Of a stretch of 64,000 nt of DNA, positions 50,549 through 50,840 are shown piece after piece. Every line of letters starts with the position of its first letter. Within the stretch, counting starts at the first letter, position 1. The notes below the pieces were generated by a model that saw only the letters and a program-made list of their open reading frames with translations, was not told the origin of the DNA and did no database searches. The stretch is from the NCBI RefSeq assembly GCF_054482525.1, contig NZ_CM137006.1. One strand, given 5' to 3'. Position numbers and translations under genes: made by a program.

Positions 50549-50840
50549 CATGACCTCTATATATTTATCTCCGGCGGTCATACCCGTCGTCTTTCAGGCC
50601 GCAGCGGCGTTAGCTTCACGCCCTCACCCCAGTCACTTACTTATGTAAGCTCCTGGGGATTCCGGCGCTTGCTACCTTGCTGCACCCAGAAATCCATAGG
50701 GTATGTGAAGTAATACCCTAACCACCACCGGGTCGTTCTATCCGTCGGTATTTTACAAAATTGTTAACAATTTTTAAACAACAAACGGCAACCGATTTGT
50801 CTATTCGCTAATAACCTCAATACATTCATGAGATTACCAG

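Follow-up and report, generated by a model that had tools for sequence, protein, structure and literature searches.

A perfect 18-bp palindrome at the Escherichia coli lpdA promoter is probably the middle of a known ArcA-P operator

Introduction

Lpd is common to the pyruvate and 2-oxoglutarate dehydrogenases. In the stretch of E. coli DNA analysed here (64,000 nucleotides of contig NZ_CM137006.1, assembly GCF_054482525.1, hereafter the window), lpdA and aceF are both carried on the minus strand, and the intergenic region between them contains a perfect palindrome, AAAATTGTTAACAATTTT, at positions 50757-50774. In an earlier note on this DNA it was proposed that the palindrome, about 210 bp upstream of the lpdA ATG and within the region expected to hold an independent lpd promoter, might be an operator for a dimeric regulator, although the factor was considered impossible to assign from sequence alone. 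The locus raises the question of which regulator, if any, makes use of these bases, and of whether it is their symmetry that is recognised.

In the ArcAB model of regulation, low oxygen leads the kinase ArcB to phosphorylate ArcA, and ArcA-P binds to TGTTAA-like repeats. ArcA is a response regulator of the OmpR/PhoB type which reads such direct repeats when they are 11 bp apart, and in the accepted model its DNA-binding domains are arranged head to tail on them (PMC4173790).

Results

By inspection of the sequence, AAAATTGTTAACAATTTT is its own reverse complement at 9 of 9 pairs, and its distance from the lpdA ATG downstream (50548-50546, minus strand) is 209-226 nt, as the earlier note had estimated. 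The gene controlled by the lpd promoter is the 474-aa lpdA coding sequence (MSTEIKTQ..., 49124-50548, minus strand). As a bare statistic the palindrome is weak: two perfect palindromes of at least 18 bp occur in this window, compared with 0.35-0.38 per Markov-simulated 64-kb window, and the second (CAAATCACGCGTGATTTG, 13847-13864) lies within a coding sequence that we take to be hrpB (HrpB). It is the promoter-spacer context that makes the palindrome at lpdA more than a matter of chance.

The lpd transcription start was mapped 195 nt upstream of the ATG (PMC2759082). In the window this corresponds to a G at 50743 (minus strand), seven bases past the -10 hexamer, and it agrees with the -38 to -6 numbering used by Park for the ArcA site described below. 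In a promoter scan of 50500-50900 just one sigma-70-like promoter was found, on the lpdA strand, with a -35 hexamer TTTAAA (50773-50778, minus strand) and a -10 hexamer TAAAAT (50750-50755, minus strand) separated by a 17-nt spacer and matching the consensus at 9 of 12 positions. With the start site at 50743, the palindrome spans -31 to -14 and takes in the final two bases of the -35 hexamer together with nearly the whole spacer, confirming that it belongs to an independent lpd promoter. The aceF stop codon is near 50873, and just past it lies the aceF terminator, a G+C-rich hairpin followed by a T run (50846-50865), which is assigned to the minus strand because the T run follows the stem on that strand, although the scan gave the stem on the plus strand. 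Many E. coli genomes share the aceF-lpdA intergenic region at 100% identity, K-12 MG1655 differs from it by one base, and the 101-bp promoter segment is a single-copy sequence present at at least 99% identity in 5322 of 5424 E. coli genomes.

Since the palindrome is self-complementary and would be transcribed in the read-through mRNA from the pdh promoter, it could be thought to act as nucleic-acid structure, either as an RNA hairpin in the pdhR-aceEF-lpd transcript or as a DNA cruciform. We regard this as very improbable. The RNA fold of -4.1 kcal/mol is no better than that of shuffled sequences (z-score -0.05, with 86 of 200 shuffles folding at least as well), which led us to reject a hairpin, a terminator and a cruciform alike. 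Nearly all pairs of the stem would be A-U, with no loop between the arms, the true terminator hairpin of aceF is found about 80 nt further upstream, and the substitutions seen in related species are one-sided rather than compensatory. A search of 50400-51000 against Rfam gave no family at the gathering score and sub-threshold matches only.

A published site for ArcA-P covers the same bases. The site TTGTTTAAAAATTGTTAACAATTTTGTAAAATA, given as K-12 127679-127711 or -38 to -6 (PMC3798270 Tables S4 and S6), maps exactly, with identical sequence, to window 50781-50749 on the minus strand, and the palindrome (K-12 127686-127703) lies wholly inside it. In the same study ArcA ChIP-seq peaks at K-12 127646 and 127683 were assigned to lpdA (Tables S1 and S6), and the ArcA box, ttgtttaaaaattgttaa, had an Ri of 21 bits, among the highest in the Park list (PMC3798270, Table S3 for the box). 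Three direct repeats were described at 127682, 127693 and 127705, the last two being 12 bp apart (PMC3798270). Expression of lpdA was 6.1-fold higher in an arcA mutant, sigma-70 occupancy at lpdA was lower without oxygen (Tables S5 and S6), and an entry in Table S6 credits an earlier demonstration of ArcA-P DNA binding at lpdA to Cunningham 1998 (PMC3798270). In another study the lpdA promoter of Plesiomonas was bound in EMSA by ArcA-P and not by unphosphorylated ArcA, FNR or cAMP-CRP, and ArcA binding at this promoter was confirmed by ChIP-qPCR (PMC10572922).

We next give the scores of these bases in an ArcA weight matrix built from 114 Park boxes, with the lpdA site left out, and run over both strands of the 64-kb window. 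The best match was TTGTTTAAAAATTGTTAA (50764-50781, lpdA strand) at 21.6 bits, against a training median of 16.0. It consists of two TGTTAA-like direct repeats, DR1 TTGTTTA (50781-50775) and DR2 TTGTTAA (50770-50764), which are 11 bp apart centre to centre, the arrangement that defines an ArcA box. A third repeat, DR3 TTGTAAA (50752-50758, minus strand), is centred 12 bp from DR2 and overlaps the -10 hexamer. Scored singly, DR1, DR2 and DR3 reach 6.8, 10.5 and 8.6 bits. The second-best match of the window, ATTTTACAAAATTGTTAA (50750-50767, plus strand, 19.4 bits), is an ArcA-box-like 18-mer which runs opposite to lpdA from -7 to -24 and shares with the first the core TTGTTAACAA, a sequence that is an ArcA repeat on both strands. 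Both lpdA-locus boxes outscore the known acnB (17.2) and pdhR (16.0) sites present in the window. As expected of an ArcA site in a repressed operon, the published site overlaps sigma-70 elements: 50781-50749 covers both the -35 and the -10 hexamers.

Taken together, we put the probability that the palindrome is the middle of the known ArcA-P operator repressing the E. coli lpdA promoter at roughly 0.88. Published experiments established that ArcA occupies the site in vivo, that repression depends on ArcA and that ArcA-P binds in vitro. To these the present analysis adds the exact overlap of coordinates, the rank of the locus in the matrix scan, the geometry of the promoter and the pattern of conservation. 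The factor, which the earlier note could not assign from sequence alone, can be named, from the published site coordinates and from the matrix ranking.

To what extent the symmetry is maintained was followed in the lpdA upstream regions of 80 Enterobacterales species, 78 of which could be aligned on the core. The exact 18-bp palindrome was found in 24 of the 78, of which 19 have it in the longer 20-bp form CAAAATTGTTAACAATTTTG. In another 16 species 8 of the 9 pairs remain, always with a one-sided change, and in 35 (Erwinia, Pantoea, Yersinia, Serratia and relatives) only 3-5 remain. In about half of the species (37/78) a degenerate left arm stands beside a fixed right arm. Eight of the nine right-arm positions show 91-100% conservation and four of the nine in the left arm 55-64%, with G-25 at 64% and positions -28, -29 and -31 at 55-58%. 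The block from -24 to -7, TTAACAATTyTGTAAAmT, is near-invariant across the 78 species; within it the T at -12, the A at -11 and the T at -7 of the -10 hexamer are invariant, and CAATT at -20 to -16 is invariant or nearly so, even though in the sense-strand reading these five bases are spacer and carry little ArcA information. Thus, the two half-sites are not equally constrained, as those of a dimeric operator would be, and this unequal constraint argues against a symmetric dimer. The proposal of an operator for a dimeric regulator stands as far as the operator is concerned, the palindrome lying inside an ArcA-P site; a dimer that reads the dyad is disfavoured by the asymmetric conservation and by the fact that ArcA reads direct repeats.

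In the same species set, Rahnella and Ewingella (L041, L055 and L057), which we take to be Yersiniaceae, have an lpdA promoter that matches the Enterobacteriaceae type at nearly every base. Yersinia (L046, L047, L053, L064) and Serratia (L033, L035) have the other type, TTTkCAGnTTATTAACAATTCTGTAAACT. This split of promoter types suggests horizontal transfer or an old polymorphism.

The conservation pattern also bears on the possibility that the dyad is functional for ArcA itself, with TTGTTAACAA read on either strand, so that two overlapping and opposed boxes, a sense box at -38 to -21 over the -35 hexamer and an antisense box at -24 to -7 over the -10 hexamer, would allow occlusion of the promoter in either register. 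We consider this unlikely, yet several observations point towards it. The antisense box is the second best of the window, and boxes of at least 11.8 bits were found on the opposite strand in 76 of the 78 species, compared with 41 on the sense strand, which indicates that some ArcA-like box is present nearly everywhere, although the opposite-strand scores come in good part from A/T-rich spacer columns and from the separately conserved -10 hexamer. Every position of the antisense repeat TTGTTAA (-18 to -24) reaches 91% conservation or more, whereas G-25, the key G of the sense DR2, reaches just 64%, and the invariance of C-20 and A-19 is accounted for by the opposed boxes and not by a sense-only reading. 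Promoters with ArcA sites in one or the other orientation are known (PMC4173790), and in the putP footprint of Park a DR3 at 12-bp spacing was left unprotected (PMC3798270). Against the opposed boxes, the key G is missing from the outer antisense repeats, which score 4.5 (ATTTTAC) and 5.6 bits, below the 6.8 and 8.6 bits of the outer sense repeats. The putP result also makes it less than certain that ArcA covers the right arm and the -10 hexamer at lpdA. In a separate observation, the acnB promoter region (46959-47020) has adjoining ArcA-box matches on both strands, of which 46981-46998 (minus strand, 17.2 bits) is the published box and the others are 46959-46976 (plus strand, 14.9 bits) and 47003-47020 (plus strand, 10.5 bits), so that lpdA may not be the only promoter with opposed ArcA boxes.

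It could also be argued that a second dimeric helix-turn-helix regulator binds the palindrome and has its operator in common with ArcA. The dyad is perfect over 18 bp in E. coli (9/9 pairs) and over 20 bp (10/10 pairs) in 19 other species, simulated ArcA sites seldom show such symmetry, the half-site AATTGTT resembles half-sites of the GntR family such as the AATTGGT of PdhR, and lpdA has also been counted in the Fis and CRP regulons. Nonetheless, a second regulator seems to us quite improbable, given that conservation is asymmetric and that every arm substitution seen is one-sided, and none of the candidates tried was retained. PdhR, whose box AATTGGTnnnACCAATT requires GGTnnnACC (PMC7660256), was rejected, as AATTGTTAACAATT has neither GGT/ACC nor the 3-nt spacer; PdhR EMSA on the lpd promoter was negative in Plesiomonas, and for E. 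coli Cunningham et al. are cited there for an absence of binding to the lpd promoter (PMC10572922). For FNR, the core TTGTT|AACAA is without the 4-nt spacer of TTGAT-N4-ATCAA, and in the FNR ChIP table the operon has a peak at the pdhR promoter only (121,987). Neither FNR nor CRP finds a consensus match, and EMSAs with both were negative in Plesiomonas (PMC10572922). The 45 papers found in a literal text search for TTGTTAACAA gave no link to a bacterial regulator, nor were ChIP-exo or gSELEX data found that name another factor at the lpd promoter. Within the 64-kb window there is no second good copy of the palindrome motif; with up to 3 mismatches AATTGTTAACAATT matches once more, within the ArcA box of pdhR, and this is no more than expected by chance. 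A by-eye comparison with the motifs of Fis, IHF, TyrR, Fur, LexA, TrpR, CpxR and PhoP gave no convincing match.

Several features of the lpdA leader were noted in passing. A repeat of about 147 nt carrying CCCCAGGAGCTTACATAAGTAAGTGACTGGGGTGAG lies at about 50578-50724 (minus strand) in the lpdA 5' untranslated region and accounts for most of the 195-nt leader. CCCCAGGAGCTTACATAAGTAAGTGACTGGGGTGAG matches the ERIC1R and ERIC2 primer sequences, and the repeat is presumably an ERIC/IRU element. The median number of places matched by part of the intergenic query is 5 per E. coli genome, and the query is at least 80% covered in 3432 of 5426 genomes. The insert is present in E. albertii and absent from the E. 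coli species representative (L002) and from Salmonella, where the palindrome lies about 109 and about 102 nt from the ATG. Just past the transcription start, CCCGGTGG (50725-50731, minus strand) is kept in nearly all 78 species, with a counterpart at about +12 to +19 in L002-L081, and is predicted to pair with CCGCCGG (50571-50577, minus strand), just upstream of the ribosome-binding site. The stem appears in the predicted fold of the leader with the ERIC insert (-81.4 kcal/mol, z-score -4.7) as well as in the fold lacking it, which would place the repeat within the loop that a conserved leader hairpin forms. One of the sub-threshold Rfam matches is to the Shigella sRNA CssrA (50533-50633, minus strand, 26 bits where the gathering score is 93, E = 0.0036). 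It overlaps both the lpdA start and the right-hand portion of the ERIC-like repeat, and probably reflects shared repeat sequence. An in-frame ATG at 50581 (minus strand), 33 nt upstream of the true lpdA start and at the edge of the ERIC-containing segment, would give an ORF of 485 aa instead of the annotated 474.

Discussion

If the palindrome is read as part of the ArcA-P operator, ArcA-P formed at low oxygen would bind DR1 TTGTTTA, DR2 TTGTTAA and possibly DR3 TTGTAAA, a span of -38 to -6 that would cover the -35 and -10 hexamers. Placed over both hexamers, the bound protein would exclude sigma-70 RNA polymerase from the promoter, and Lpd would be repressed anaerobically together with the genes of the TCA cycle. 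The lower sigma-70 occupancy without oxygen, taken with the coverage of the hexamers, points to promoter occlusion, a mechanism that we infer from geometry. Through this promoter the supply of the shared E3 subunit, Lpd, follows the redox state of the respiratory chain.

The dyad symmetry would then be incidental, and it is not what ArcA is known to recognise: it may have come about because DR2 TTGTTAA precedes CAA and A/T runs lie at the flanks. Symmetry of this kind is nevertheless no trivial by-product of the composition of an ArcA site, since simulating three-repeat ArcA sites from the matrix gave perfect palindromes of 18 bp or more in only about 3 of every 10,000. It is conceivable, if doubtful, that the dyad was selected for itself, either because ArcA-P binds in either orientation or because a second dimeric factor shares the operator, and such selection would explain both the invariance of -20 to -16 and the rarity of the palindrome. 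Only tentatively, TTGTTAACAA as a repeat for either strand can be said to fit this rarity, the -20 to -16 invariance and the putP DR3 result together. Were ArcA to use both orientations, a strand switch of the upstream box would separate promoters of the Erwinia/Yersinia type from those of the Enterobacteriaceae type. Use of two orientations by a regulator of the OmpR/PhoB type, or binding to a third repeat at 12 bp, would refine models of ArcA sites and would leave the picture of lpdA regulation as it is.

With ArcA as the preferred reading, the feature is an already known and ordinary one rather than new. ArcA-P binding at lpd was reportedly described by Cunningham et al. in 1998 (FEMS Microbiol Lett 169:403), the limits of the site having come to us second-hand. 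As the link between ArcA and lpd has been known since then and was confirmed genome-wide in 2013, no new biology is added here.

Compared with known systems, the closest is the E. coli lpd ArcA-P operator itself (Park 2013, PMC3798270; Cunningham 1998), which is the same locus with the same bases and no sequence difference. In the Park 2013 account the lpd site is described as three direct repeats, with neither the 18-bp dyad nor the opposite-strand box, and the string 'palindrom' does not occur (PMC3798270). Like lpdA, the three-repeat ArcA sites of icdA and acs have TGTTAA-like repeats over sigma-70 elements and are repressed by occlusion, as lpdA probably is (Park 2013; PMC4173790), but in these all repeats are 11-bp spaced and all three were footprinted, whereas DR3 of lpdA is 12 bp from DR2, as in the putP class. 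The PdhR box AATTGGTnnnACCAATT (GntR family) in the pdh promoter of the same operon is likewise an A/T-flanked dyad at a promoter, with the outer half-site AATTG.., while the lpd palindrome has GTT|AAC in its centre, with no 3-nt spacer and no GGTnnnACC core.
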